A stretch of DNA of 46,242 nucleotides, counting the filler, from Catajapyx aquilonaris (taxonomy: Eukaryota), in the NCBI GenBank assembly GCA_000934665.2. It is 2 parts of 2 records of this genome, joined end to end, with 100 filler letters (N's around TTAATTAATTAA, not from the genome) between each part and the next. Parts side by side here need not be neighbours in the genome. Positions count along the whole stretch, not along the records: positions 1 to 23,074 come from KZ539408.1; 1 more part is not named here. One strand, 5' to 3'. The notes beneath the pieces are model-generated. The model made no database searches. It had not been told where the DNA came from and worked only from the letters and a program-made list of their open reading frames with translations. The position numbers and the translations under genes are program-made. Positions 3,191 through 46,242 of this stretch are shown here, piece by piece (the first letter of the stretch is position 1; each line of letters starts with the position of its first letter).

Positions 3191-5169
3191 GCACATGGCT
3201 GGTCATTAGTAATGATTATTCTATTTTAGAAAAACCTGAATTGCAGAATCAAAATCAACAAGTTACTCAGTTGAACGGAATGGGTATTCCAAATCTTTAC
3301 CATTTTGCACCACATCTGTCAAGAGATGAAAGAAGCCTTCGTCCAGCATTCATCAAATCTCGGAGACATGCAGATAACAACGGTAATAAAGCCACTAGAG
3401 AGCAGCAAGTGAATTTATTCAGAGAATAAGTTGGTAATTTTTTAACAATTTATTACAGCCAAAATAGTTTTGGGAATTCCAACAGTGAAGCGCCAATTCC
3501 AAAGCTACTTGTTGAGCACACTTCAGAATTTGATTACTTCAATGTCCGAGAAGGAACAGGCTGAATCTCTAATAGTAATCTTTGTTGGAGAAACAAACTT
3601 GACATACGTGGAGAGTGTGTGGGAGCAATTGCTACATCATTATCAGCCATACATCGACTCTGGTCTCATTGAACTTATATCACCACCTGCCTCATATTAT
3701 CCAGACATGGAGAAGTTGAAGGGAACTCTTGGAGATACATTTGTACGTGTCAAATGGAGGACCAAGCAAAATTTTGATTTTGCTTTTCTTATGATGTATT
3801 GCCAGGTAAAAAAATTATATAATTCATGTCAGTTTGTATTTTATTGGTAGTAATTGTTATTTGTAGGAAAAAGGGCAGTATTATGTGCAGCTAGAAGACG
3901 ACATCGTTGCGACGCCAGGTTTCATCACAACAATGACTCAGTTTGTTCTTGTTAACGCGACAGCGCATGAAGATTGGTTTGTGCTAGACTTTTGCCTTTT
4001 AGGTTTTATCGGTAAATTAAAAATTGCTGCTAATTGCTCAAGAGCGACTAATTTGCATGATATTTCTTATATTATAGGAAAAATGTTCAAAACTTCGCAA
4101 CTTCCCTGGCTCATTCAGTATATATTTATGTTTCACAACGAAAAACCTATCGATTGGCTTCTGGAGCACCTCATCCAGACCCGCATTTGTCGACTTGACA
4201 CAAATATTGTAAGTTCAGTTTTTCTACAATATTTTGAAGACAGGTTATTTTGGCGACGCATCAGAAATAATGCATCATTTTTCTTAATGTAATATTATAC
4301 AGTCGGAGTGCGAAGAAGCTAAAAATCAAATAGTTTTACACCATAAACCCTCGCTGTTTCAACACGTCGGATCGCATTCGTCCCTTCACGACAAGAACCA
4401 AGCCCTAAAGGTTAGATAATAATGGTTACATGGCGGCAAAAATCGCTATTTTAACTCCCCCTTTCAGGACAATGAATTTGGAATGGTTCCACTCTACACA
4501 CCACATATAAATCCACCTGCATTTGTCAATACGTCACTTAAACACTACCAAAATTTTACCTTGACTGGGGCTTACCTAGGGGACACCTATTTTTGGGGTG
4601 TGGCTCCCACGCATGACTCTTATGTTTCATTCTTCTTCACGCCACCTATTTTTATTCAAAGGTAAGTGTGCAATATTGAATATTTCCATGATGGTTCTGA
4701 CACCCAAACAGGGCTGTGTCCTTGTTGAAAAATATGTGCTGGCAGTTTTAGGGGCCAAGAACCGTTGACAAAATAATGTTTATGTCCAAAGGTACCATTT
4801 CCGGAGTGGGAACCTGGAGCATCCATCAGATCGTTTCTACGAGACTGCTGTGGAATTATGTCCAGTAGATGGTGTGGACAAATTTTTGGAGACCCATATC
4901 ACCACTGTTGATGGCTATGTAGTTGCAGGACCTGATTTTGATGACATGGGAATTGCTAATGGAAACGTGGATCCTGCCTTGGGTAGGATCCAATCCTTGC
5001 GTTTGCATGTGCTGGAGTCGACTGAACAATGGGTCATCCTGAGCGAGGTGACCTGATAATATATTTAAAAAATCATCAAGTTGTATAATATTCTGACGAT
5101 TTATTACATGCTCGATACAAGCTTGCATTATTTCGTTTACAGATTTATATAGAAGAAGCCATTCGCTGA
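2679..5169 (+). CDS. MGAT4: Alpha-1,3-mannosyl-glycoprotein 4-beta-N-acetylglucosaminyltransferase (GnT-IV, GT54)
   Basis: 11 exons: 2679-2689, 2753-2859, 2961-3101, 3230-3382, 3459-3805, 3867-4011, 4078-4208, 4303-4410, 4468-4661, 4792-5047, 5143-5169; all introns GT-AG and in phase. Type II TM helix (FGFLFLVVVLAASSLIFFI); motifs VLGIPTVKR, WRTKQNFDF, YYVQLEDD, LGFIGKMF, KPSLFQHVG, FRSGNLEHPSD, WVILSEI. Confidence 0.93.
3116..3190. repeat. (TTG)n(TTA)n microsatellite in MGAT4 intron 3
   Basis: Directly visible trinucleotide run. Confidence 0.97.

Positions 5170-5473: not shown

Positions 5474-5537
<64 letters not shown>
5474..5537. repeat. (TTA)n microsatellite
   Basis: Directly visible trinucleotide run. 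Confidence 0.97.
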
Positions 5538-6494
5538 GCAAATTCGCACTCATATTTACAAACAAGCTGATTCGGTTATTATCATTAAATAAATTGTTAT
5601 GTTTTAACATGATTTATTTCTCAAAATTCTAGGTTTAATTTTCTAAATAATTTATCGTGATTTAGCGCCCCTGTGCATAATCTCACATCGAGAAGGGTTT
5701 TCTGGATTGTCTTTCCACGACTTTTGTGAAGAACAGTTACATTTCAGGGGAGTAGCATTCACCGAGTGCCCAAGCAAAAGTCTCGTTATTCCTTACCAAA
5801 TGTTATACCATTAGGTACAAAATAATATTGGTAGGTGTGTGTGTGCCAAGAAAAATTTGGAGATTATTCCATGCTGTGTATCAGAATTTCACTGACTCCT
5901 TATCGACGAGAATTTTGTGTAAGCTCATAAGTTACGCTGGTTCTCCTGATTGCTAGGAAGAGGAGGTGAGCGTGGGGGAAATTAGATGCACACGATTATA
6001 ACTCTGGATGGTAAGTCATGATTACTTGTTAGAGGTAATAATTAATGTGAGTCCAAAAACATGCTTCAGTGAAACAAATTATAACTTAAAAAGTCTCTAA
6101 ATAAGCAAAAGGACAATATGAAGTGATGTCAGTAATATAACTGCATAGTTTCTATGAGCCAAACCCAGGCCAAACCCACTGTCGTGTGCTATCCCATCCA
6201 CTATCACCTATTCTATGTGACTTTGATCCCTTGTTTATGGTACAGGTATCACTCTAACATTTGAAGTCAGGCAATTAAAAAATCAACTTCAGTTCAGTAG
6301 TTGTTAGACCTTACTATAAAATTAAAAAACTATCCACCTATTAGTAGCAGTCACTTCTAAAAACAAATAAAGCAACAGGACTAAATACATATTGGAGTAA
6401 CTTCTAGGACTCCCGTTAAAGCAGCCGTCGGCTGTAATAGAGGCACAATTAATGGGAAAAGAATTATTTTTCGACAATGTTTTCGACCATGCCA

Positions 6495-8913
6495 TTATTC
6501 CGACTTACTCTTCCACCCTATGATGTCACCATTCGCTTCGTTTTCTTTGATCAACCATGTCTCCAATGGCATAAAATATTCTCGAATTGGGTCTACGGCC
6601 ATTAACTTGGTTCCTGTCAAGGCTTCCAATGCTTCTGGCCATGGCTTGCTGGAACCTAACCTCATCATATCCCTGTAAAATATATAGTTCAGCAAATAAC
6701 AGACTCTTATGTTCTATAACAGTTGTTTTACCACTTACGATAGCTTTTGCCCCGCGTTGGTTGAGTTGTAAAAGTCGCAAGTGTGCAATGGACCTGTGTG
6801 CCCAGCAGCACGGCACAAAGACTGACCGAACTGAAACTGAACGATGGTTCGGATGAAGTATCGTATCATGTCGTAATCAAGGGCTACGTGGAAAATTGCT
6901 GCAGGATCTAGGTCACTTGCATCTCGTGTGATTGGTGCCTTGACACCAACTATATCTTCTCTGAAAATGCAGAAATGATGATAAATACCAGGGAGACAGT
7001 GTTAAGAGAAAAACGTACTTCAGCTTCCAATATTCTGAATTCCATCTCTCGGAAGGTATTTCACCAGCGAAAACTTTCCATCTCCACAAATCGTTGACCA
7101 GATGAAACGGTAAGGTCGATATTGTAGTGAGAGCCATTCTGAGCAAAAAGTTGATATCTTGTTCTGAAATTAAGAGGAATATAATGTTGAGCTCATTGAA
7201 TACGACATATGGTTTTATTATTTACCATAATTTCTTTCGTAATCCGGAAGCAGGCCTATTGCCTGCATATGTTGTGGGGTAGACACACACATGCTCATTA
7301 GTTCGCCGATTGCTTCATGAAATCCGTCGTTTGCTCCGTTCCTGCAAATCCATACGCATATAGCTTAATCAGATTCATCATCATCATTAACATTAATAAA
7401 AGAAAAGTCAACCGTATGTATGTGTTAAAATAGCGTACAGTATCCTGGTTCTGGTGTAACTAACCTGTATACAAATGGCTGATGAGAATATTGCAAGAAA
7501 TATTGCACGTGGCCCAATTCGTGATGAATGGTGAGAAAATCATCCAGGGTAACGTTAGCGCACATTTTAATCCTGAAATGAACCACAATTTGAAACACCA
7601 CGTGACCCTAAGATCTGATTACCCTATATGCATATAAGTCACCTGAAATCTTGACCATCTCCAAAGTCCCATGCCGTGGCATGGCACATAACTTCTCTTC
7701 CTTCAGGTCGTTGTAACATGGACTTGGTCCAAAAAGTAGAAGGTAGTGGAAGAAGACCCATGGACACATAGAAATCTTCCGCCACTTGAAACATTTTGAT
7801 AACGTCATACCCAAGCTTTCCGAATTGGTCAGTCGGGTCTATAGGTTTCTGATTTGGAAATGGCTTTACTATAGGGTACAGACCCAGCCAAAAACGACCC
7901 CACATGTCTCCCAACAAGTGAGCAGGTAGAGGCCCATGGACATCTACTTCAGAAGGCCCATAAGTTGCGTACAATTTTCTTCTGACGTAAGAATGAAGTT
8001 GTAGATACAGCGGTCGCAGCTGTTTGTATAAATCCATTACGTCATCCTCGAATGTGTCAGTCTCGTACTTACTCCTACAATGAGTGTTTAAAAAAACTAA
8101 CTGAACAAAAGAGTAGATATTAAGATCGACAATTTTTAAAATACCTCCAGAAGTGACCATAATCATCGTATCCATTAAGTTTGGCCAACTGATTCTTCAA
8201 TTGCACATACTCCATGTACAAAGGTCTTATGGGTCGTCCTACATTTTCCCTCCAAGTTTTCCACACTAACAATCTTTCTGAAGCCTCCGTGGAGCTGAAC
8301 ATAATGTCCTCCAAATGTGGATTTAAACTGAGCAACTGTTTGCTGCCAGGTATCGAGATCTTAGCTTCTGCATAAATCTTCCCCATTTTGGACAAGACAG
8401 AAACAAGCCTCGACTGATCTTGTGGACTCGATCGTCTACCGCACTTCTTCAACTGCCTCTTCGTATCTTCTGAAAAATCTGTTGCGTCGAAAATGCTGGC
8501 ATTCTGATACGCCTCACTTTGAAAATTGTCCATAATTAACTGGGCTTCCTCCTACAAACAGAAAAGTTTTATTCCAATGCAATGATGGAAGTGTACCATG
8601 CGAGCCAACTTACCGATTTTTTAGCGTTGTAATCGGTTAGGTTGGTACTATAGCTCCACTCAGCTGTCACCAACTTTTGATTGAGGCGACTGCACTCATC
8701 GTTATATCGCTTTAAGAAATTCACTGCGTCCTGTTCATTCATATTACTCTGAGCTGCTACGCACACTCTGTAGTGTATAAGCACATGCATATACGCACAG
8801 TTTATTATGTAGACCCAATAAATCGCAAGTCCACCGGAGATAAAAATGACTTACCTAGATACGGAGGCTACATAGATGAATGTCATGGCCAAGGCTAAAG
8901 TGCATGTACTCAT
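6495..8913 (-). CDS. Secreted single-domain M2-family zinc peptidase (ACE family, ACE2-like active site), ~606 aa
   Basis: 9 exons: 8913-8855, 8767-8614, 8551-8145, 8074-7643, 7572-7465, 7341-7226, 7163-7019, 6960-6739, 6672-6495 (1821 nt, phases consistent). Signal peptide [25 protein letters not shown], intact HHELGH and GFHEAIGE zinc ligands, [14 protein letters not shown]; ends IIGWKSKSE* with no TM anchor. Confidence 0.95.
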
Positions 8914-23266: not shown

Positions 23267-26200
23267 TTACAGTATTCTCCCACCACTTCCGTCCTGTGAA
23301 AAACAAGAATGATCAAATCCATTTACTGACGTGGTGATGTATACCAAGAGAGCCCTATAAATTACCTTTGAAAGTGGATCACATCCGTGATTCATCAGCA
23401 CTTCCAACAGTTTCAGATTTTCGTCTTCCGTCTTGCTAGCACGAGCTAAGACATGTAATGGTGTACATCCTACAAAAAATTAAAACACAGTGTCTTCATT
23501 TAAAATTGTGATAGTAGTATGGTCATGTCATCAGCATCATGTACTGTAAATTGCACAAAAAAACTTGACTTTTTCTCTGATTTAATAAGGTGCTGAGAGT
23601 GAACATGACAAACTGTGAAAATGCAGTCAATTTCAGATGATAATGCAAGAATATAGAGCAATTATTTAAAACCACCTTCGTAAGGTTAACTCTAGGAACT
23701 AACCATATTGATTTCTCTTGTTTATGTCAAAGACAGGTTTTCCATTCGGGTTCACAATTTCCAGGAGACTTTTCAAGACAACTGCATACTCATCATCCAG
23801 TTTGCACAATTTGTGAATGTAGGTGTTACCATCAGAATCCACCTGCAATAAAATCAAGTCAGAATGAACTGAACTCAATATTGCTTAGCCCAAAACATTT
23901 CCATTTGCTTGTTAGTGGTGATATTAATTCATTCGTGCAGAACCAGAAGTGTGTAACGAGTGACAAAATAAGGGCAAGGGATACCTTACCTGTGTCACTA
24001 ATTTTGATTGACCAAAGTTCACCATGGCTTCAGCTAAGCACAGGGCAGCCCAAGCTTTATTTTCGTAGATGGCAAAATCAAGTGCACTCTGCAAACCAAG
24101 CTCAAATTACTGGGTCTGTCAATCACTGATTAGCAGTTGCGCACCTGGCCTGAATAATTTTTCCTCTTAAGCATGCCACGAAATTTAGCCAGTCGAACTA
24201 CCAGTGCAGCGAGATACTCCAGATTGGAATCATCAATGGCATGATGAAGTATTCTGCAAAATAAAATTACTTCAGTATCAAGGAAAATCTACGTTTGACA
24301 TGTGCTTTAACTCACGTGTCTCCATTGCTATCCTGGCTGGTCAATTCGCAGTCTGGAATCTGTCCAATTTCTCGGATATGAATATGTTTTTGCTCCTGAT
24401 TTAACTGTGCCTTTACATGTTCCTCTGCAGTTTTCCGCGGAACAGGTGGATTTGATTCAGTAGGTTTCGGCTTTGGTAGCAATGGCCTCTGGCGTCTCAC
24501 TTGTTGAGAATGATTTGCCTTAGGCACACCTGTGGTGACAGTCGAACGCATTGCTTGTTGCAATGGTTGAACTGTACTGGTGGTAATGGCTCGCTGGGAA
24601 ATAACTCCTTCATTGGAAGAATCAGCGATTGCATTGAAAAAATCTGGAGAAGGAGTGTTTGGTATGGAAATGTCTGGAGATAACAAATTCAAATTGTAAT
24701 CATTCCAATGAGCATCAGAAAAATCAGTGGCAATATTCGGAGGTAATACAGCAGCAGTGGTAGGGAATGACTTTTGTGGTGATTTAACCATGGAATCGGC
24801 AGGAGATAGTATACCGTAATGGTCATTGTGCAATTCTCTTGGTGGACTGTCCATTACACTTGGAAAATCCAGTCCCCCAATAGCGCCAAAGTTTTCACCT
24901 AGTTCATAGACTGAGTTGCGTCCAAGGCCAATGGCGCTCAAGCTCTCCTGAAAATTTAAGCCATGTTAATAAATGTCAGGGGTAGCAGCAGTAGCCTACA
25001 TACCTCCTCATTTCTCGGGGAGGAAGAAGAAAAGGCTTCTCCACCAACTGACTGGGAAGTCACCGTTACATGCTTAAAAGAACATGATGAGTGTTAGTAG
25101 ATGTAGGATATAAATTAATAAATTAATATTTACCTGCTTATTCCTGTGTTTCTTCCCTCTTCTGATCGCTCCGCTGGGTGATCTGGAGCGCTTGGCTCTC
25201 CCGACCTCTCTCTCTGAATGTGCTGAAATGAGGAATGAGGTGTTATTTATTGGTACTTATTTCACTATACACTGCTTCATTACCTGTGAGTGCCGGTCCC
25301 TGAAAGTCAGCCGAATCAGTTACGTAAGACTCAGCATGTCGGTCCGGATCCCGGTCATCCTGGCGTAGTTGGTGCCGACCCTGCAATCGTCTTGCTCCGT
25401 ACACGTTCAGCTCCTCTTCATGCTCTTCTGCAGTGATTGACATCTCAGGTCTAATGCCTCTGCCCATTTCATAATCATCATCACCACCTTCATGCTCAAA
25501 AACAGGTCTTCTATTAAGAATGGTGTCTGTATTATTGCCAGATGTAAAAATGGTGTCATCTTCGTCATTCATCTGATGCTGAGCTCGGGGGGCCTGTGGG
25601 GCCGCCGCCCCACCGGAGGGATAGGATCGGCGCCACTGCTGAAGTACTGGTCTCCTAGATCCTGGCCTGATAGACTGTTCTTCAACACGATTGATGCTGC
25701 TATGAGTAAATCTCCTTGCATTAAGATTCGCTCTAGGGAATAGTGAGTCTCGGACCCATTCAACCCCATCTGCAAGGTGCGACCCAAACTCCTTTGCCAA
25801 TGACGCCGAATGGTGTCCACGCCAACCCACAATTTGGCCATCAGCTGACCACGCTGGTTCCTCTCCACGTAGATATTGCGGAATGGCCCGAGGCAATTCC
25901 TTCAACACATTTGTATAGTAAACGACTTCCCCCCTCGCTTCATCTGGCTCATTTTGGCGCCCCCCTTGCCCCCCTTGAAGCAACTCTCTGCCAACATTGA
26001 TGCCCAATGGTACATAATGCTGCAGCCACTCCTTCGCCGCTCCTGCACACTGCATCGCAACTCTCCTTGCCATTTCACTTGCATCCAGTCCATTGTTAAC
26101 TTCCACCAACCTTCTGTGTGCAATGTGTGGCCCTTCATACTGCACAGCGTCTCTCGTCCTTGCCCTTCTAATTTCATTCTGAACTTGCAGTGCACGATGC

Positions 26201-26533
26201 GGACCTGCATTGTGCACAGCTGTCCTGGATCCATCCGTGTAGCCCCTTACAATAAGTTGCGGTATCCTCCAAAGCCATCTCTTCACGACACCTGCACAGT
26301 ACCCAAGGTAGTACCCAATCCCCCGGCCAGCATCTTCCGCTTCCTCCTCTTCCACGGTATCATTCCGTCGTACTTCAGGTGGTGGCTGGCCACGACCTTG
26401 CCCTTCATTGCTGAAGTACCTCTTTGCAATGAAAGCACTACCAATGCTGCAACAATTCAACCATACCGGTATGTAGCCTTTTCTCTTAATGTTCAGTACT
26501 TTGTACTTACACAATTAGAGGCACCAACAACAT
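23267..26533 (-). CDS. Nuclear IkB-like (IkB-zeta/IkB-NS/Bcl-3 type) ankyrin-repeat protein with long novel N-terminus, ~817 aa
   Basis: 10 exons: 26533-26511, 26446-25284, 25222-25134, 25072-25004, 24947-24316, 24253-24145, 24088-23990, 23842-23704, 23469-23366, 23293-23267 (2454 nt, GT-AG, phases consistent). Ankyrin repeats QDSNGDTILHHAI, KNYSGQSALDFAI, VDSDGNTYIHKLC, RNQYGCTPLHVLA; basic patch RRGKKHRNK. The first and last exons are less certain. Confidence 0.78.
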
Positions 26534-26662
26534 TGTCCAGGCAGCAAAGACACGTCCAACTTGCAGCAATTATTCCTCCAACACTTCCTCTTCCAAACTG
26601 TTCCATTCAAGTTGTTCGAATTGTATCGAGGGGAATCCCCTCGAAACATTACACACATTAAT

Positions 26663-26896: not shown

Positions 26897-28584
<1,688 letters not shown>

Positions 28585-31647: not shown

Positions 31648-33414
31648 ATGGCGTCTTCTGAAAGCACGGGTGTGACCACGGGTCAGCCGCATTTGGCCAA
31701 ACAGGACCTCTCCACTCTGGTAAAACGGGCCGGGGATATGCCAGGATGAAAGAGGACAGTCAGATCTGTCAGTAGGATACGGCATGTTGGGGGCAAAACA
31801 CCCAACTGAACCTTAAAAAACGGAACAAATGTTGCCACCGTATGGTCGACATGTGACTGATTTTTTATCATTTTTTTTTTTCAGGATGTGAAGACGTTGA
31901 ACCCTCTTTCTCCTGAGGTTATCAGTCGACAGGCGACCATCAACATTGGGACCATTGGGCATGTGGCGCATGGGAAGTCTACGGTTGTAAAAGCCATCTC
32001 GGGGGTCCAGACTGTTCGGTTTAAGAACGAGTTGGAGCGGAACATCACTATTAAGCTGGGGTATGCCAATGCGAAGATATACAAGTGCGATAATGACAAG
32101 TGTCCACGACCTGCTTGCTACATCTCGGGAGGGTCGTCCAAGGAGGATTCGTTCACGTGCCTAAGGCAGAACTGCTCCGGAAGGTTTAGGTTGGTTAGAC
32201 ATGTGTCGTTTGTGGACTGTCCGGGGCATGACATCCTCATGGCTACCATGTTGAACGGAGCAGCCGTAATGGACGCAGCACTGCTTCTAATCGGTAAGTT
32301 TCGGAAACTGACACCATCGCCTGGTACTCACAAATTGTATCCACAGCTGGAAATGAGTCGTGCCCACAGCCGCAGACCTCGGAGCATTTGGCCGCTATCG
32401 AGATCATGAAGCTGAAGCATATTCTGATCCTGCAGAATAAGATTGACCTCGTTAAGGAGAGCCAGGCTAAGGAGCAGTACGACCAAATCCTTAAGTTCGT
32501 GCAGGGTACTGTAGCGGAGGGGGCTCCTGTCATTCCGATATCAGCACAGTTGAAGTACAACATCGAGGTCATCTGCGAGTATATTGTGAAGAAGATACCC
32601 ATACCCCAGCGGGATTTCTTGTCCAGTCCGCGGCTCATCATCATCCGATCGTTCGATGTGAACAAGCCTGGATGCGAAGTGGATGACCTTAAAGGAGGCG
32701 TCGCAGGAGGAAGCATCCTCTCGGGAGTACTTCAGGTAAGATGATCACCGAACTGACAATATCAATAGAAACTGATCATTATTATTGTTATTCCAGGTTG
32801 GTCAGGAGATTGAAGTACGACCAGGGCTGGTGTCAAAAGACTCCGAGGGAAAGCTGACGTGCAAGCCCATATTTTCTCGCATCGTCTCTCTCTGTGCCGA
32901 ACAAAACGACCTCCAGTTTGCCATTCCTGGAGGACTCATTGGTGTTGGCACCAAGATCGACCCGACTCTGTGCAGGGCTGACCGTATGGTGGGACAGGTC
33001 CTCGGGTCAGTCGGAGCCTTGCCAGACATTTTCATTGAGCTGGAGATTTCGTATTACCTGCTGCGTCGACTTTTGGGCGTCCGCACGGAAGGAGACAAGA
33101 AGGGGGCAAAGGTGCAAAAGCTGACGAAGAACGAGGTTCTCATGGTCAACATCGGCTCACTTTCTACCGGCGGGAGAGTGCTGGCCGTCAAGGCTGATTT
33201 GGCCAAGATCAGCCTGACTACACCAGTGTGCACTGAAGTCGGGGAGAAGATTGCGCTCAGTCGGAGAGTCGAGAAGCACTGGAGGTTAGTACAGCGCTGA
33301 CGTTGACTTTTGCGATGCAATTTACGAGACAAATTTCTCTTCCTTTTCAGATTGATAGGGTGGGGCCAGATCCGACGCGGAGTTACCATCAAACCGTTTG
33401 TGGAGAACAAGTGA
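31648..33414 (+). CDS. EIF2S3: Eukaryotic translation initiation factor 2 subunit gamma
   Basis: Exons 31648-31719, 31885-32293, 32347-32735, 32797-33284, 33351-33414. Motifs [46 protein letters not shown]. Confidence 0.98.
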
Positions 33415-36287: not shown

Positions 36288-36921
36288 AACTTAAAGTGAC
36301 ATTTTTTAAAGGTGGATAAATTAATTACGACCCTCACCTGTCTGAGCTATTCACATTTTTGATGGATTTTTTTGTTGCATCTGATTGGAAGCGTTCGAGA
36401 GACCCAAGGAGATACCTCACTTATGTGGCCTTGTCAGGCATTTTTCAATTATTATGCTGCGTGACATTTTTATTTTTAAAAAATCCTGTACAGGAGCACT
36501 GTAACCATTGAGCCCAAAAATTTTTTAAAGATAGTATTTGGCGCTATTGCAAAAAAAAAAATTGCAAGTTACCTCCCCCAGTGACACAAATGTAATTTTC
36601 ATAGCCTTGGACATGTCAGTTTGATTCCGCACCTAGACAGTACAGTACGGTACATCGGACATCATTATGAGAAATTGTTGGTACAATACTGAATATCTGT
36701 TGCAAAATATGATCGACTTATATTTGCATTATGTATGGAATCAACACTGTCGACAGAGGACAACATGTTATTGCTTCACCTGAAGAAAGGAAGTTAGTCA
36801 TGTACACAGTACTGAACAACACAGAGCAGATCGCGTAAATAATTGATAGGTGCAAACAGTATTAATTTATGACGTGTAGTGAGTCACATTGGCTAGGGAA
36901 AACTGACCGAGCTGGAGGAAA

Positions 36922-38303
36922 ATGTCGCACGTTCAGCAGGACGTGTTTTGGTCCTTCTCGCCCTTGGCCGGATGTTCGGCCATCTTCGGGTTGTGGACTT
37001 GTCCACTGCATCCCAGAAGAAAGTCATTACGTCACATGTGGCCACTGGCTGTCAGTGTCATCATTTCCGTGACCGGATATTTCTTAAACACTTGGATGAG
37101 GCTGACACTGACGGTACCTTCGGATATGACCAGATCAAGCACCAACGCGACGGCAAATTTTGACTTGAACATAATCATTAAACTGATGCTTCTGGTGACC
37201 TTGATGATTCTATCGAAAAAACGAGATCAAATCAGACGCGTGTTGGAAAAAATTGACACTTTGGACGGGATTTGCGGAGATCTGGAGGTGAACAACTCTC
37301 TTAGGAAATTGTCGTGGAAAATATTGTTCTACTCGCTCTCGCACATTCACTGGCGATGTCGATGGGAACTGAAATGATTTTGTGGAGCATTGATCAAACT
37401 ACAGCAGGGTTGATCCTTACATTTGCTGATTTTCAATTCACATCTATACGCAACGTTGCCGCAGGTCAACTTCTCTTCTTCGCGTCTACCATAGGACGTC
37501 GGTTTCAGCATGTTCGCGAGGAAATCGCGACTAGATGCGCCTCGCTGGAAGAACTGTTTCCCTCTTCCGAATCTGAAGAAGTGTCCAAGCCTACAAATAT
37601 TTGCAATGCAACCTTTGCCAAACCTGGCAAAGTGTATCTGGAGCTTTATGAGCTAAGTGCAGATGTGAACAAAGCATTTGGAATCTCTACATGCATTTCC
37701 TACCTGGGGATGTGCCTGGGAATCGTCGCACACTTATTTTTCATAATAGACACTTGGAATGCTGTGCCTCTCATGAACGCGGTGATTTTGACTTTCTTGG
37801 AAACAACCGACATATTTATTACGGTCATTTTCACCTCTGCAATATCCAGACAGAGCGAAATAGTAAGTATACGGTAATAGAGATGTACTGTGCATTCAAC
37901 AATGTGAAACGCTTTACCATTGCAGGCTCTTCAACCTTTGGCCCATCTGATGAAGATTCGCAAATTGGGCCTGAGTCCGGACTCCCAAGAACAGGTCAGA
38001 GGTCACGCATCATTCACTGACTCTCTTCCATTTACTCAAAGACTAAATGTCCCACTTGCTCCTACCAGGTCCAGACCCTGATCCAAAGGATGCTGGGTCC
38101 TCCAGTCCAGTTCACTGCAGCCAACTTCTTCATCATCAACCGAGGGCTACTCACCTCTGTAAGATTATTAGCACACTTGCATCACTTGGGTACTTCTAAG
38201 AGATAATTGGCCTGATGCTGTATTGTTGTCTTTTCAGATTGCAGCAGGTCTCACTACTTATCTGGTCATCCTGACGCAGTTCAGGTCTGCCGAGAACAAC
38301 TGA
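36922..38303 (+). pseudogene. Gustatory receptor copy 1, frameshifted
   Basis: Exons 36922-37862, 37926-37994, 38069-38158, 38238-38303, ending TTYLVILTQF. Two extra nucleotides (AT, ~37321) relative to the paralogs split exon 1 into two ORFs; an assembly error is possible. Confidence 0.8.
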
Positions 38304-39038
38304 AATGATTTTCCCTTAGCACCTGTTGCAGGATTGAAGGAGAGTTAATAATGCCCGGATTATGTGACATATAGTGTCGAATGAACTGCATCTTCTTTCT
38401 TGCACAGAGTGTCATGCTGTATAAAAATGGGGGTTGAGTAAAATGGTATGAATAAATCGATCTAATCATGTGTGAGTACATTTATCTAATCAAACATCGG
38501 AATCTGTCATGGGGATTGCGCATGATGGTTTGGAGCGGGTATTGCATTATTTTTACAAGGCATATACATTTGGAAGTAATCTGTATCAACTTGGTTTGTG
38601 TATGTGTGACATGTAAAATAATCCGGTACAGGAACCTTGTGACCATTGCGCCCAATTTGTTTTAAAGAGAGTAATTGCCACTATATATAGCAAAAAATGC
38701 AAGTTAACTTCCCCAGTGATGCAATGTAATTTTCATGGCCTTGGACATTACATGTCAGGTTCATCAATATTCCTCACCTGTATAGAGTACAGAACGGTGC
38801 AATGGAATATCCGTTGACAAATATGATCGACTTACTTTGAATGCATTATGTATTGCGTCAACAATGTCGACAGAGGGCAATAGGTTATTGCTTCACTTGA
38901 AGAGAGGAAGTTAATCATGGACAATGTAGAACAACACAGAGCAAATCGCATAAATAATTGATAGGTGCAAACATCATTAATTAATGACGTACTTAGTCAG
39001 TGACATTGGCAAAGAAAAAGTTACCAAAGTGCAGGAAA

Positions 39039-40420
39039 ATGTCGCGCGACCAGGACGTGTTTTGGGCCTTCTCGCCCTTGGCCGGATGTTCGGCCATCTT
39101 CGGGTTGTGGACATGTCCACTGCATCCCAGAAGAGCGTCTTTACTTCACCAGTGGCCACTGGCTGTCAATGTCATCATTTTCGTGGCAGGATTTATCTTC
39201 TGGGCTTGGATGAAACTGTCCGCACCACTGGAAATGGTCAGATCAAATACCAACGCGACGGCAACTTTTTACTTGAGCAGAATCATTCAGCTGATGATTC
39301 TGGTGAGCCTGCTAGTTCTCTCTACGAAACACGGTAAAATCAAACGGATATTGGAGAAACTGCACACTTTGGATGGGATATGCGGAGACCTGGAGGTGAA
39401 CCACTCTCTTCGGAAATTGTCATGGAAAATTGTGCTATTCTCTCTCGCACATTCACTGGCGATGGCGATGATAGCTGGATTATTTGTATGGAACATTCAT
39501 CAAACTATAGGGCTGATCTATGCACTTGCTGTTTTTCAATTTGTGTCCATCTCTAACATAGCTGCAGGTCAACTTCTCTTCTTCGCGTCTACCATCGGTC
39601 GTCGGTTTCAGCATGTTCGCGAGGAAATCGCGACGAGATGCGCCTCGCTGGAAGAACTGTTTCCCTCTTCCGAATCTGAACAAGTGTCCAAGCCTACAAA
39701 TATCAGCGAGATCACCTTTGCCAAACCTGGCAAAGTGTATCTTGAGCTGTATGAGCTGAGTACAGATATCAACAAGGCATTTGGAATCTCTACATGTATT
39801 TCCTACCTGGGGATGTGCCTGGATGTCGTCTCATTGTTATTTTTCACAATTGACACTTGGAATGCTGTACCTCTCATGCACAAGCTGATTATGACTTTCT
39901 CAGGAACAAGCAAAATATTTATTACGGTCATTTTCACCTGCGCAATATCCAGACAGAGCGAAATAGTAAGTACAATAGAGATGCTACTTATTCTTAGTAC
40001 TGTGCATTCAACAATGTGAAACATGTTTCTGGAGGAATCGCTTTATATTTTGCAGGCTACTCAACCCTTGGACCATGTGATGAAAATTAGCAAATCGACC
40101 CTGAGTCCTGTCTCTCAAGAACAGGTCAGAGGTCACGCATCATTCGCATCCACTTACCAAAAGGCTTATGATTATTATTCTCCTGACCAGGTCCAGACCC
40201 TGATCCAAAGGATGCTGGGCCCTCCAGTCCAGTTCACCGCAGCCAACTTCTTCACCATCAACCGAGGGCTACTCACCTCTGTAAGTGCTTTACTTGCATC
40301 ACTTGGGTACTTCTCAGAGATCATTGGCCTGAGGGTGATTTGCTGTCTTTTCAGATTGCAGCAGCTGTCACTACTTATCTGGTCATACTGATCCAGTTTC
40401 GGTATGCCGAGATCAAGTAG
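39039..40420 (+). CDS. Gustatory receptor copy 2, intact, ~383 aa
   Basis: Exons 39039-39965, 40056-40124, 40191-40280, 40355-40420. Three C-terminal phase-0 introns, FTAANFFTINRGLL and the TTYLVILIQF TM7 signature of arthropod GRs. Confidence 0.93.
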
Positions 40421-40725
40421 AACAATATTCTACAGTACTTGGTATGATTTATGACACGGCACAGTAGCTTTCGTAATTCACAAAGTGCGCAGTTACTTGC
40501 ACCATGTGGTATAGGATGTGACAGACATTAATAAGATTAAACTAAAAGTCTAAAACAAAATAACACATTTTCTGAGCATGAAGAATGTCGTGACCACAGC
40601 ATGGAACTGTCTGTATATATAATATTAATCGTCGGATCAGTGTAAATGGCAGTGAGTAATGAAGCTTAGCATATGTTCCTTTGGAAAAGAAGAAAATCAT
40701 AATATACATACTACAGTGCAGGAAA

Positions 40726-41707
40726 ATGTTTCGCGTTCAGGACGTGTTTTGGGCCTTCTCGCCCTTGGCCAGATATTCGGCCATCTTCGGGTTGTGGACA
40801 TGTCCACTGCATACCAGAAGAGAGTCATTACTTCATCTGTGGCCATTGGCTGCATATTTTTCAATGTGTGTCAATACGTGACCTGGCTGCAGGTCAACTT
40901 CTCTTCTTCGCGTCAGCCATCGGACGGAGGTATCAGCATGTTTGCGAAGAAATCGCGACGACATGCGCCTCGTTGCAAGAACTCAAGGAGTGTCCATACC
41001 TGCAGATATTCGCAAGGCCACATTTGCCAAACCTGGCAAAGTGTGCCTGGAGCTTAACGAGCTGAGTGTAGATTTGAACAAGGCGTTTGGAATTGTCGCA
41101 TGCATTTCCTACCTGGGAATGTGCATTGAAATTGTCACGTCGGTATTTTACGTCATTGACTCTTGGAATGTGACAGCTCTTATGGTCAACTTGTGTATTT
41201 CTTTATTTCCAACATTCAACATATTGTTGACGGATATATTTTTCACCTGCGCAGTAAACAGTCAGACTGAAACAGTAAGTATGCATGCACTAAATAGTGT
41301 GAACCCTGTTTCTGACGAAATCGATTTGTCTTTGCAGGCTACTCGACCCTTGGACCATCCGATGAAAATTCGCAAGTTGGGCCTGAGTCCCAAGAACAGG
41401 TCAGAGGTCAAGCATCATGCATGGACTCCCTTCCATTGACCACAAAGACTAAATATTCCACTTGCTCCTACCAGGTCCAGACCCTGATCCAAAGGATGCT
41501 GGGTCCTCCAGTCCAGTTCACCGCAGCCAACTTCTTCGCCATCAACCGAGGGCTACTCACCTCTGTAAGTGGACTTGTATCACTTGCTGGGTACTTGTCA
41601 GACATAATAATTGTACTAAGGGTGTATTGTTCTCTCTGCAGACTGCAGCGGCTCTCACTACTTATCTGGTCTTCCTGATTCAGTTCAGGTCTGCCGAGAA
41701 CAACTGA
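40726..41707 (+). pseudogene. Gustatory receptor copy 3, internally deleted and frameshifted
   Basis: Jumps from WPLA (~40852) directly to the FQxxSIRDL region, lacking ~360 nt present in the paralogs. Further indels near 40985 and a 7-nt loss in exon 2; still ends TTYLVFLIQF. Confidence 0.88.
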
Positions 41708-42477
41708 AATGGTTCTTCCACACCCATTGCATTGGTTGAATGAAGGGCAGTAATTAAACGAATAATTATTCCCGAATTATGCGACGCAGTATTGCATGAA
41801 CGGCGCGATTGCATCTTCTTGCTTGCACAGAGTGTCTTGCTGTCGAAAATGGTGGTTGGGTAAACACAGTACTATTAATAACTCGATCCAATCATGTGTG
41901 GGTATCTTACATTAATCTAACCAGACATTACAATCTATCATGTGGATTGCGCATGATGGATTGGTGCGGGTATTCCATTTTACAAGGGACAAAATTTAAA
42001 ATCGCGCCAAAATAGCCTCGTGAATATTAAGCGTCACTTATAATATACTATATTGCATTACTGTAAGAAAGAGTGTAATTATTGGTGTTGTCGAACAAAA
42101 ATGCGAATTAATTCCCACAGTAAAATGCAGATGGAATTTTCATAACCTTGGGTGTGGCATATTGATCAAGACTCCGCATCTGTACAGTACACATCGGACA
42201 TCTATAAAAGTGCAGGTGCAATAATTATTATTGAATAGCTGCTGCAAATGAGCGACGTCCTTTGCATGCATTACGAAAGAGTCCATAATAATATTATATT
42301 CCTCAGATGACAAGTTGCTTCACGCAAAGCGAGGAAGAATGGTCACATGGACAATGAACTGACCAATACAAAGGAGGTTGCGAAAATGATTGATCCTACA
42401 GTTGCATGCATCAATAATTAATAACGAGGCGTATGCTACGGTATGTTGGCAAAGGGTAAAGACTAAAGTGGTGGAGA

Positions 42478-43852
42478 ATGTTTCAAGATAAGGACGTGTA
42501 TTGGGCCTTCTCGCCCTTAGCCAGATATTCGGCCATCTTCGGGCTGTGGACATGTCCACTGCATCCCAGAAGAGAGTCCTTACGTCACATGTGGCCACTT
42601 GCTATCAATGTCATCATTTTCGTGGTCGGGTATTTCATAAGCACTTGGATGATATTGTCTGGATCAGAGCGCGACACCGCATCAAGTACCAACGCGAAGG
42701 CAAGTTTCTACTTGTACAATGTCACCGAACTGATGTCTCTGGTGAGCCTGCTGTTTCTCTCGAAGAAACACGGTAAAATCAGACGGATATTGGAGAAACT
42801 GCACACTTTGGATGGGATTTGCGGAGATCTGGAGGTGAACCACTCTCTTCGGAAATTGTCATGGAAAATTGCGCTATTCTCTCTCGCACATTCACTAGCG
42901 CTCACTATGATTAATGGCGGCTATTATTGTAGCACCTATCAAACTGCAGGGCTGATCCCTACATTTGCTGTTTTTCAATTTATGTCAATGCGTGACCTGG
43001 CTACAGGTCAACTTCTCTTCTTCGCGACTGCCATCGGAAGGAGGTTTCAGCACGTTTTCGAAGAAATTGCGACGAAATGCGCCTCGCTGCAAGATCTGTT
43101 TCACGTTTTCCAATCAGAAGAACTGACCAAAGCTAAGCAGGCTCGCAATGCAACCTTTTCCAAACCTGGCAAAGTGTATTTGGAGCTTTATGAGCTGAGT
43201 GAAGAAGTCAGCAAGGCTTTTGGAATATCTGCATGTATTTCCTACATGGGAATTTGCCTGGACATTATAATAATTGTATTTAATGCAATTGACACTTGGG
43301 ACATGATCCCTTTCATGACCAGAGTGACTTTCCTGTTATTAGCAACTTTCAACATATTTGTGATGGCCATTGTCACTTCCCTGATATACAGTCAGAGTGA
43401 AACAGTAAGTAAATAAACTTACACTCAATAATGCGAAATCCATCTCTGACGGAATCTCTTTGTCTCTGCAGGCTACTCGACCTCTGGATCATCTGATGAA
43501 AATTCGCAAATCGGGCCTGAGTCCTTACTCCCAAGAACAGGTCAGAGGTCACGCATCATGAACTGGCCCCCCTTCCACTTACCCAACGACTCATTATTCT
43601 CCTACCAGGTCCAGACCCTGATCCAAAGGATGCTGGGTCCTCCAGTCCAGTTCACCGCAGCCAACTTATTTACCATCAACCGAGGGCTACTCACATCTGT
43701 AAGTGCACTTGTATCACTTTGAGTACTCTTTAGGCGTAATTGGCCTGATGGTATTATTGTTGTCCTTGCAGATTGCAGCGGCTATCACCACTTATCTGGT
43801 CATCCTGATCCAGTTCAAGTCTGCCGAGAACAGCTCCAAAAATCCAACCTGA
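42478..43852 (+). CDS. Gustatory receptor copy 4, intact, ~388 aa
   Basis: Exons 42478-43404, 43472-43540, 43609-43698, 43772-43852; TTYLVILIQF motif. Confidence 0.93.
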
Positions 43853-44479: not shown

Positions 44480-46242
44480 ACTCCCATTCCACTCAATAAA
44501 GGGCGTGGTAAGTCTCGCAATGGACAGTTGGCAAATCATACGCCCATGAAGCAAAGGAGTGTCACTGCCCCACAAAATGTCGCAAGTGCAAGACGTCCTT
44601 CGGTCCATTGGCCGCAACATCAGCATCATTGGGACTATGGACTCACCCTCTTCATCGGACCAAGACATCCAAGCATCACAATGATGTGACCAACGAATCT
44701 GCTGAAGAGATCATTTTCGCTGCCGGATTACCTCTTAGGCAACACCAAAATGTGCAATTCAGGAGATAACAAAAATGCGACGTGTCCATCACCACAATAA
44801 TTTTTCTGATATTTGCACTAAAACGAAAATCTAAATATCACTGTTAGTGGTGCATGCAGAACTTTATCTTGGGGGTGGGGGAGCAGGGCCCGCCGCAGAC
44901 GAAAATTTTTCCCGTTCAAGGTCACAACCCTTCCTTGCGACCCCAAATTTGGGGTCGCGACCGCAAAACGGAAAAGAACCCATAGAACAGTGCAATTTTG
45001 CACTGTTCTAGAGGGTTTTTGCGAGTTTCCCACCCGTTTTTTTCTATTTTTTTCCGTTTCTTTTCTTCCGGGGGAGCTCAGNNNNNNNNNNNGGGGGGGG
45101 GGGGGGGCAATTGTCCGATTGCCCCCCCCTGGATCCGCGCCTGGGTGGGATACAGGCGTTCTTCAGAGAACTGGAATGTCGGTTGTCCAGACGTGTCTCG
45201 GAATAAGTATATCTCTAGATCCAGGAACAAATTGTATCCAATGCAAGCCAGCTGCTCTTCTTGCATCCTCCCCAGGCAGCTTTGCAAACCCTCTCCCATG
45301 ATCAGCTTTGTTTTAAGGCTCACCATCAAAGGATCATCAACATAACCGAGATATTTATGCAGAATCAAGAAGTTGATTAGGTCAGTTTCAATTGCCCATC
45401 CGGTATCCACAAGTTCCCGAATGTTTCTTGGGACAAACTCTCTCGGTGGGAAGGTGAGGAAGGAGACCACCTTGGCCTTGTAGCCCGTGACGACCACGGT
45501 GGAGAAGAAGAGGAACGAGGAGGCCAGGAAGAGGAAGCGACGAGACTTGGGGAAGGGAACGGGCTGCTCCAGAAGATGTCTGGCCACCACGTGGAGGGAT
45601 CCCAGGAGGGTCAGCGTGTCAGCGACCTTTGACCTCCCTCCAGATGGGTTGAAGAGGGAGAGTATGTTCATCGCAATTGGGAAAAGAATGAGAGTCGCCG
45701 CCAGAGAAATCCAGAAGGAATAGTGGTAAGGTCTGTAGATGACCTTCCAGGTGACCACACGTCCTCCGGGTCGTCTGGTCGTGAAGGTGAAGTATCCGAA
45801 CACGAAAGGCGGAGAATGAAGGAAGTAGCGGGTGGTGTTCTCGGTAAGGACCATGGTATTTGCTATATCCACTCTTCGTGACACCAAATCCCCAGCTAAG
45901 CCCACCCACGTTCCATTTGCAAGAAGATGGTCAAAGTCTGCGCTTTTGGGCTCGTTCAAGTAAATCTCCGTTGTGTAATTCATGGCCTCTTCAACCACCA
46001 GATATCCACGCTCGTACCACTCAATTTCTCATCTCTCCTTCTTCGGACATCTTCCATGTCTGGAGTGTATTTATACGTCCCTATCACTGCCTTCCTCTTG
46101 TTCATCCTGTACTTGTCGTAGTTTCTGAACAAGTACTCCACTCTTCGTGTCCTGAGGACGTGTCCCAGGTCGATGACCTCAGACTGACCTCCCCGTCCGC
46201 AGAAGAAGCAGACCGTCTCCAGCCTGACCTTCCCTCCGTCGT
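44480..46242 (-). pseudogene. Divergent intronless ionotropic receptor (IR), disrupted; 5' end beyond the window
   Basis: S1 (NGTWVGLAGDLVSRRVDI), M1 (IYRPYHYSFW), pore (LLEQPV), M2 (STVVVTGYKAKVVSFLTFP) and S2 (PRNIRELV). Frameshift near 46000 (SGTSVDIW / VVEEAMNY) and a MITE end at 45143. Decayed C-terminal pieces (DAWMSW; PKDVLHLRHFVG/AVTLLCF) at ~44480-44750 are lower confidence. Confidence 0.8.
45093..45143. mobile_element. hAT-like MITE end inserted into the IR coding sequence
   Basis: G-run...GGGGCAATTGTCCGATTGCCCCCCCCTGGATCCGCGCCTG abruptly replaces IR coding sequence. The other end is lost in or beyond the N gap at 45082-45092. Confidence 0.7.

Follow-up and report, generated by a model that had tools for sequence, protein, structure and literature searches.

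On the minus strand of a 46,242-nucleotide stretch of DNA from Catajapyx aquilonaris (assembly GCA_000934665.2; two parts joined end to end with 100 filler letters between them, positions 1 to 23,074 coming from KZ539408.1; the whole stretch is called the window below) lies an intact arthropod gene. It encodes a single-domain zinc metallopeptidase from the M2 family, to which ACE and ACE2 belong. The gene occupies positions 6495-8913 and is present in single copy within the window. Where ACE has Gln, Lys and Tyr to hold a C-terminal dipeptide, its product has Arg, Ile and Met, the Arg being that of ACE2. The protein is likely, judging from its residues, to be a secreted, chloride-binding, captopril-insensitive mono-carboxypeptidase of the ACE2 type; the gene is probably a member of the ACE2 orthologue group and goes back to a duplication that preceded the protostome-deuterostome split.

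This is one ordinary member of the ACE2-type M2 peptidases, among dozens of crustacean copies. What makes it worth attention is the clade and not the copy in the window: a conserved, uncharacterized enzyme of the ACE2 type that crustaceans have and insects apparently lack. An earlier reading of the same DNA, made without database searches (the sequence-only reading), had proposed an ACE2-type active site here; as a single gene the find is less novel than that reading took it to be, because the type is widespread and because NCBI already names some of its members ACE2 or ACE2-like.

Residues of the active site

Residues were numbered on mouse ACE2 (P0072) by aligning 396 M2 domain segments, from 355 fetched proteins and the window protein, to a hidden Markov model profile. 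In this numbering the window protein has R273, F274, H345, A346, T347, M360, T371, H374, E375, H378, E402, E406, Y477, K481, I503, F504, H505, Y510, M512, R514, Y515 and R518, with Arg also at ACE2 position 169; mouse ACE2, over the same positions from 273 to 518, reads R F H P T M T H E H E E W K L F H Y F R Y R. The domains of human ACE (P0122) have, at the discriminating sites taken in order, Q, S/T, A, S, Q, D, R, K, T/V, Y and S, and they have T/V at ACE2 position 371; the alignments of a PDB search agree with the profile alignment on the human ACE residues. The table of human ACE/ACE2 contrasts on which the sequence-only reading relied proves to be right when both human ACE domains and mouse ACE2 are aligned. 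Insect AnCE-type enzymes have the ACE residues at these sites.

The window protein has a complete zinc site (HHELGH from its residue 367, and EAIGE at 396-400, which places a Glu about 24 residues downstream), and all of the catalytic and transition-state residues that ACE and ACE2 have in common are present (the equivalents of H345, H505, Y515 and R514). Beyond this common core the residues side with ACE2. Arg stands at the R273 position with Phe274 adjoining it (R267 and F268 of the window protein); the Lys511/Tyr520 pair of ACE is absent, its places being taken by I496 and M505 (L503 and F512 in ACE2); and Thr347 and Tyr510, residues of the small S1 pocket, are both there. The diagnostic triad of ACE, Gln281/Lys511/Tyr520 in tACE numbering, is thus replaced throughout, by Arg/Ile/Met. 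The equivalents that had been claimed for R273, F274, T371, E406, Y510 and R518 all hold in the alignment to mouse ACE2, and so does the claimed loss of the Lys/Tyr pair, with I and M at 503 and 512. At the S1' position where ACE2 has Pro346 the window protein has Ala, as does ACE. The sequence-only reading had noted this Ala and called it an ACE-like exception: the residue is as it said, the exception is not, since Ala is the norm at this position in invertebrate Arg-type domains (Ala in 40 of 54, Pro in 13, Gly in 1).

Set beside vertebrate ACE2 (PDB 1R4L/2AJF; mouse P0072), then, the window protein agrees in fold family, in zinc site and in catalytic residues; it shares R273, F274, T347, M360, T371, E406, K481, Y510, R514 and R518; like ACE2 it has a hydrophobic residue in place of Lys at 503 and lacks Tyr at 512; and the two are 46-47% identical over about 600 residues. 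It differs in being 606 instead of 805 residues long, without the collectrin-like domain and the membrane anchor. With the domains of human ACE and with insect AnCE and Acer it shares the M2 fold, the HEXXH...E site, the His/Tyr catalytic residues and Ala346. (AnCE and Acer are likewise described, in the review PMC8648576, as secreted single-domain proteins.) The ACE type differs in its Gln281/Lys511/Tyr520 triad and in carrying Asp, Ser, Arg and Ser where ACE2 has E406, T347, K481 and R518; the window protein has none of these ACE residues.

Across the family these are two discrete classes, Arg-type and Gln-type, of which the former is a sharply defined minority. In the segments that have a residue at each of positions 273, 503 and 512, the combinations are (R,L,F) in 116, (R,I,M) in 30, (R,L,M) in 22, (R,M,F) in 4 and (Q,K,Y) in 77; mixed combinations occur at most three times each. 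(A technical note on these counts: the initial search for relatives leaned toward ACE2 because candidates were gathered by shared words. When 1.84 billion representatives were searched by HMMER with exon 4, without reliance on shared words, the best 150 matches included 11 with Arg273 and 118 with Gln273.) A profile built from ten invertebrate Arg-type proteins, A1, matched 4684 proteins at E <= 1e-30, of which the best 120 were examined.

The signature of the window protein was found in 54 invertebrate domain sequences (the "M512 class"), among them sequences from Daphnia, Artemia, a copepod, an ostracod, krill, crayfish, crab, shrimp and amphioxus. Crustacean single-domain Arg-type proteins among the matches listed come from Daphnia galeata, D. 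pulex and D. sinensis, Artemia franciscana, the ostracod Notodromas, Tigriopus californicus, Oratosquilla, Meganyctiphanes, Hyalella, Cherax quadricarinatus, Procambarus (P. clarkii), Macrobrachium, Portunus and Eriocheir; cluster look-ups add five Penaeus species and Panulirus. Invertebrate deuterostomes are represented, among the same matches, by Branchiostoma, Asterias, Patiria, Diadema, Ptychodera and Saccoglossus, and the look-ups also named a Saccoglossus protein. Conservation within the M512 class is close to absolute: R273, F274, E406 and R518 in 54 of 54 sequences each, M512 in 53, a near-invariance that indicates purifying selection on the signature. The likeness to ACE2 is already visible in databases, in the automatic NCBI names "ACE2-like" for the Tigriopus californicus protein and "angiotensin-converting enzyme 2" for that of Cherax quadricarinatus.

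The crustacean proteins under such names (ACE-like, ACE2, ACE2-like; all of them uncharacterized predictions) resemble the window protein closely: they have the same signature (RF, then E, then I or L with Y and M, then R), lengths of about 600-680 residues, mostly no tail, and 50-57% identity to it. Some do carry a hydrophobic end. A C-terminal hydrophobic 19-mer occurs in 3 of 44 near-full-length invertebrate relatives; the short hydrophobic C-termini of P0158, P0163 and P0016 (krill, crayfish and Daphnia pulex) may be membrane anchors or signals for a glycosylphosphatidylinositol anchor, and the window protein has no such end. The nearest ESM Atlas clusters are M2 fragments annotated "commonest Rotifera" on 7 records, which serves as a lead and nothing further.

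What of the insects? No hexapod appears among the best 120 of the 4684 A1 matches, and the two hexapod proteins in the comparison set (Orchesella, Timema) are both Gln-type; together these hint, weakly, that the Arg type may be absent from insects.

Descent of the Arg-type proteins

The sequence-only reading had left two explanations standing, an ancient ACE/ACE2 split retained in this lineage or convergence. FastTree, applied to 120 rows, unites the 51 Arg-type rows without exception in a single clade (support 100), with the window protein inside a 35-row arthropod set (support 99). A second tree was computed with IQ-TREE (LG+G4; 51 rows and 599 columns) after masking the 12 diagnostic columns, because the argument would otherwise be circular. 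The split between Arg-type proteins, vertebrate ACE2 among them, and Gln-type proteins persists (100/99), and the window protein groups with ACE2, across the split from the ACE type; the 21 arthropod Arg-type rows, the window protein included, form a clade (100/99). Within it the window protein falls among branchiopods, copepods and an ostracod, in a subset of 13 rows (93/97). Its own branch there is distinct and fairly long (0.62), comparable nonetheless to those of its relatives. Its nearest relatives, P0142 and P0149, are metagenome or transcriptome proteins at 56-57% identity; among the database matches listed there is none closer than 57%, and none from the same species or genus. Forcing the arthropod Arg-type and the arthropod Gln-type proteins together costs 94.7 log-likelihood units and is rejected by an approximately unbiased (AU) test (p = 4.0e-7).

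Protostomes and deuterostomes are found on both sides of the Arg/Gln split, and both types are therefore older than the divergence of those two groups, wherever the root of the tree may lie. Of the two explanations the first is accordingly favored. Its wording was too narrow: the type has indeed been retained in this lineage, and it is also widespread in crustaceans and in invertebrate deuterostomes. The proteins of Branchiostoma, Asterias, Patiria, Diadema, Ptychodera and Saccoglossus have the Arg-type signature in single-domain, tail-less form and belong, although from other phyla, to the same large clade. We lean, with some reserve, toward the view that non-insect arthropods and many invertebrate deuterostomes hold true descendants of the gene that was ancestral to vertebrate ACE2, single-residue carboxypeptidase site included.

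The literature has arranged these matters differently. Fournier et al. 2012 (PMC3354321) describe ACE2 orthologues in amphioxus and Ciona, place the ACE/ACE2 duplication in chordates, and say that flies have neither. Reviews approach invertebrate ACE biology by way of the insect enzymes AnCE and Acer (PMC8648576, PMC9518657), and in both of these Acer, which enters the present comparison by description, is termed the fly "ACE2 homologue". ACE sequences of Daphnia or shrimp appear in PMC8073597, PMC7676880 and PMC9798321, as far as the accessible parts of these papers go, without separation of the two types. The literature searched, which covered neither subscription journals nor the supplements of the papers just named, contained no paper on an arthropod ACE2-type clade; two of those supplements (PMC7676880, PMC8073597) list invertebrate ACE sequences and may bear on priority. 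A well-described arthropod clade with these residues, which in the eyes of the sequence-only reading would have removed the novelty, did not turn up in that literature.

If the descent proposed here is correct, the ACE/ACE2 duplication happened before the protostome-deuterostome split, in early bilaterians, and not within chordates; the ACE2 type would have been lost in insects, and fly Acer would not be an ACE2 orthologue. Crustaceans would have an unstudied, secreted and captopril-insensitive arm of peptide processing, and a captopril-insensitive carboxypeptidase activity would be expected in their fluids or gut. Such an activity could affect how quickly peptide hormones with free C-termini are turned over, and how "ACE-like" assays in aquaculture species are to be read.

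One feature of the tree invites a different account. Amphioxus (Branchiostoma P0011) groups with the arthropods and not with the vertebrates (support 96 in FastTree, 85/76 in IQ-TREE), and it shares with them M512, Y or F at 477 and I or L at 503, whereas vertebrates, echinoderms and hemichordates have F512 and mostly W477. The arthropod and amphioxus M512 proteins could on these grounds be a second ancient Arg-type paralogue, sister to ACE2 and possibly with a specificity of its own. We consider this doubtful, although it is the best of the alternatives: support for the amphioxus-arthropod grouping is moderate, differences in rate could generate it, and no species with both subtypes turned up (no search was aimed at finding one).

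Predicted activity and rival explanations

Does an ACE2-like set of residues make an ACE2-like enzyme? In the account of Lubbe et al. 2020 (PMC7642307), Gln281, Lys511 and Tyr520 of ACE bind the P2' residue by its C-terminal carboxylate, and their counterparts in ACE2 are Arg273, Leu503 and Phe512; Arg273 of ACE2 blocks S2' and coordinates the P1' carboxylate instead, resulting in single-residue cleavage and in insensitivity to classical ACE inhibitors, and Thr347 and Tyr510 narrow S1. By analogy, Arg at the R273 position of the window protein would fill the pocket that is S2' in ACE and would bind the terminal carboxylate of the substrate, while Arg, Ile and Met in place of Gln, Lys and Tyr should leave no hold on the carboxylate of a C-terminal dipeptide, so that one C-terminal residue, and not a dipeptide, would be removed. 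Tyr510 and Thr347 should make for a small S1 pocket, as in ACE2. R169, Y477 and K481 suggest that an ACE2-like chloride site is probably kept, and insensitivity to captopril-type ACE inhibitors is to be expected. Natural substrates might be peptides with free C-termini in the haemolymph, the gut or another extracellular space.

Several considerations weigh against this picture as a whole: 1) The literature searched yielded no enzymology for any member of the invertebrate clade, and the activity is read from residues. 2) The pocket is not that of ACE2 in every detail: A346 replaces P346, M512 replaces F512, I503 replaces L503, Y477 replaces W477 and N363 replaces K363, and N145/E149 are further changes. 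3) Exon 4 by itself favors ACE, at 171 bits to about 142 for ACE2; exon 8 by itself goes the other way (ACE2 chains, 87-93 bits; ACE domains, 64-75 bits). 4) Overall identity is a weak discriminator: it stands at 46-47% for the ACE2 of mammals, at 42-45% for the ACE domains of vertebrates and at 37-44% for the ACE-type proteins of arthropods. 5) The tree has no root, the AU test was run on a group picked after the tree had been viewed, and the model was LG+G4 and not a site-heterogeneous one (LG+C20). 6) The gene model, its splicing included, is a prediction from genomic DNA.

One rival possibility is that the window protein is, despite its ACE2-like residues, an ordinary ACE-type peptidyl-dipeptidase resembling the ACE-like activities reported from crab and crayfish tissues. 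Fold and catalytic core are common to ACE, its identity to ACE over the whole protein nearly equals that to ACE2, Ala346 is an ACE residue, and one review (PMC9518657) cites crustacean activity of the ACE-like kind. We nevertheless regard it as unlikely, since every one of the three residues that bind the dipeptide carboxylate has been changed (Gln/Lys/Tyr to Arg/Ile/Met), the new Arg being the very residue that blocks S2' in ACE2 according to Lubbe et al. 2020. The reported crustacean activity can be explained otherwise, because crustaceans own separate paralogues of the Gln/Lys/Tyr type (the Oratosquilla P0031 and Darwinula P0128 domains are examples).

A silent gene or recent pseudogene, bearing a signature that no longer serves a function, is very improbable: the locus is known here from DNA, but its frame is open over nine exons with canonical splice sites, all catalytic and zinc residues are intact, and the branch of 0.62 is no outlier among those of the relatives. 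Convergence, the second explanation offered by the sequence-only reading, would have an ACE2-like site arise inside the arthropod ACE lineage, unrelated by descent to vertebrate ACE2, and it is rejected as barely credible: close overall identities to ACE and ACE2, and the M512/Y477 of arthropods against the F512/W477 of vertebrates, are outweighed by the masked tree, by the AU result and by the occurrence of the signature in echinoderms, hemichordates and amphioxus.

The gene and its surroundings

The coding strand was read base by base and the exons were joined by coordinates. The resulting model is a complete gene of nine exons, its 1821-base open frame specifying 606 residues and a TAA stop at 6497-6495, and all eight introns have GT-AG borders. 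The span that the sequence-only reading had marked, 6739-7915, falls inside it.

Exon 1, 8855..8913, minus strand: ATG at 8913-8911; hydrophobic N-terminus; ends in phase 2; donor GT
Exon 2, 8614..8767, minus strand: start of the M2 domain; PF01401 positions 2-46, E 4.5e-06; AG/GT borders
Exon 3, 8145..8551, minus strand: PF01401 46-186, E 1.4e-26; AG/GT borders; equivalent of R169 of the ACE2 chloride site
Exon 4, 7643..8074, minus strand: PF01401 185-331, E 1.4e-61; a ten-residue motif with Arg267 (ACE2 R273) and Phe268 (F274); motif CHAT with H345, A346, T347 and the first Cys of the C344-C361 pair
Exon 5, 7465..7572, minus strand: PF01401 329-368, E 1.1e-16; equivalents of M360 and T371; a 12-residue motif; the zinc HEXXH, H368-E369-L370-G371-H372 (ACE2 H374/E375/H378)
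Exon 6, 7226..7341, minus strand: PF01401 365-404, E 3.2e-12; a 12-residue motif; E396, third zinc ligand (ACE2 E402); E400 (ACE2 E406, Asp in ACE)
Exon 7, 7019..7163, minus strand: PF01401 405-455, E 8.4e-18; equivalents of Y477 and K481 (W477/K481 in ACE2; W/R in ACE)
Exon 8, 6739..6960, minus strand: PF01401 449-528, E 5.3e-29; region of the substrate C-terminus and S1; I496, F497, H498, Y503, M505, R507, Y508 and R511 (ACE2 L503, F504, H505, Y510, F512, R514, Y515 and R518)
Exon 9, 6495..6672, minus strand: PF01401 528-581, E 1.2e-16; end of the M2 domain; TAA; no transmembrane or collectrin-like extension

All four motifs that the sequence-only reading had quoted are encoded on the minus strand where it had placed them. 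The ten-residue motif lies in exon 4, its Arg codon being CGT at 7896-7894; a 12-residue motif lies in exon 5; a 16-residue motif lies in exon 6, its leading R assembled across the exon 5/6 junction; and a 21-residue motif lies in exon 8, whose end at 6739 is the coordinate at which the marked span began.

Assignment to the family is secure. The Pfam domain Peptidase_M2 (PF01401) is matched by eight minus-strand stop-to-stop frames between 6495 and 8850, with E-values from 1.4e-61 to 4.5e-06 and scores of 26-209 bits against a cut-off of 23; the exon frames together make a full-length match above that curated cut-off and run collinearly through positions 2-581 of the 581 in the profile. Because there are eight such frames, with strong E-values and collinear coverage, the match is not a matter of chance. 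A tblastn search with four relatives located no second M2 locus in the window.

The N-terminus of the protein is hydrophobic and signal-peptide-like (among its first 35 residues the Kyte-Doolittle mean over a 12-residue stretch peaks at 2.03), and no residue extends past the M2 domain envelope, which ends at residue 606, as is also so in most relatives. The tail of vertebrate ACE2, a collectrin-like domain (PF16959) followed by a transmembrane anchor, is missing, and among the database matches listed PF16959 is entered for vertebrate proteins alone. The secreted-type architecture without collectrin or transmembrane tail that had been claimed for this protein agrees with a frame that ends with the M2 domain; hydrophobic N-terminus and missing tail together suggest that the 606-residue protein is secreted.

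The label "arthropod" also stands: the protein is nested in a crustacean clade, and the window contains 7tm_7 chemoreceptor genes, an ionotropic-receptor-like gene and a coproporphyrinogen oxidase (CPOX) gene of insect/cladoceran-like type. Contamination and horizontal transfer were considered and rejected, in view of the eight spliceosomal introns and the animal genes around the locus. About 1 kb downstream of the peptidase stop, at roughly 5500-5570, is a trinucleotide microsatellite that would read as poly-Ile, poly-Leu and poly-Tyr in the three plus-strand frames.

The remaining features of the window, in order of position, are these:

3446-4292, plus strand: exons of an MGAT4-like glycosyltransferase
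24312-26661, both strands: GC content higher than anywhere else in the window (0.46-0.50); long open frames of 217 and 423 residues on the minus strand and an overlapping one of 262 residues on the plus strand, with no Pfam match
27188-28439, plus strand: the CPOX gene; best named matches insects and cladocerans at 57-63% identity
28960-29982, minus strand: an apparently intronless gene for a 340-residue MATH-BTB-BACK (SPOP-like) protein; Pfam BTB 1e-22, MATH_2 3e-09
31861-33300, plus strand: eIF2-gamma exons
36907-43416, plus strand: a tandem array of about four gustatory-receptor-type 7tm_7 genes (PF08395, E down to 1e-15)
45078-46028, minus strand: an ionotropic-receptor-like (Lig_chan) frame that runs into an assembly gap (109 N near 44.9-45.1 kb)

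Two of these call for comment. The long exon frame of the CPOX gene has 198 residues for 174 profile positions and may contain a short in-frame intron or an insertion; and the 7tm_7 copy at about 40656-41678 is spread over several frames and is possibly a pseudogene.

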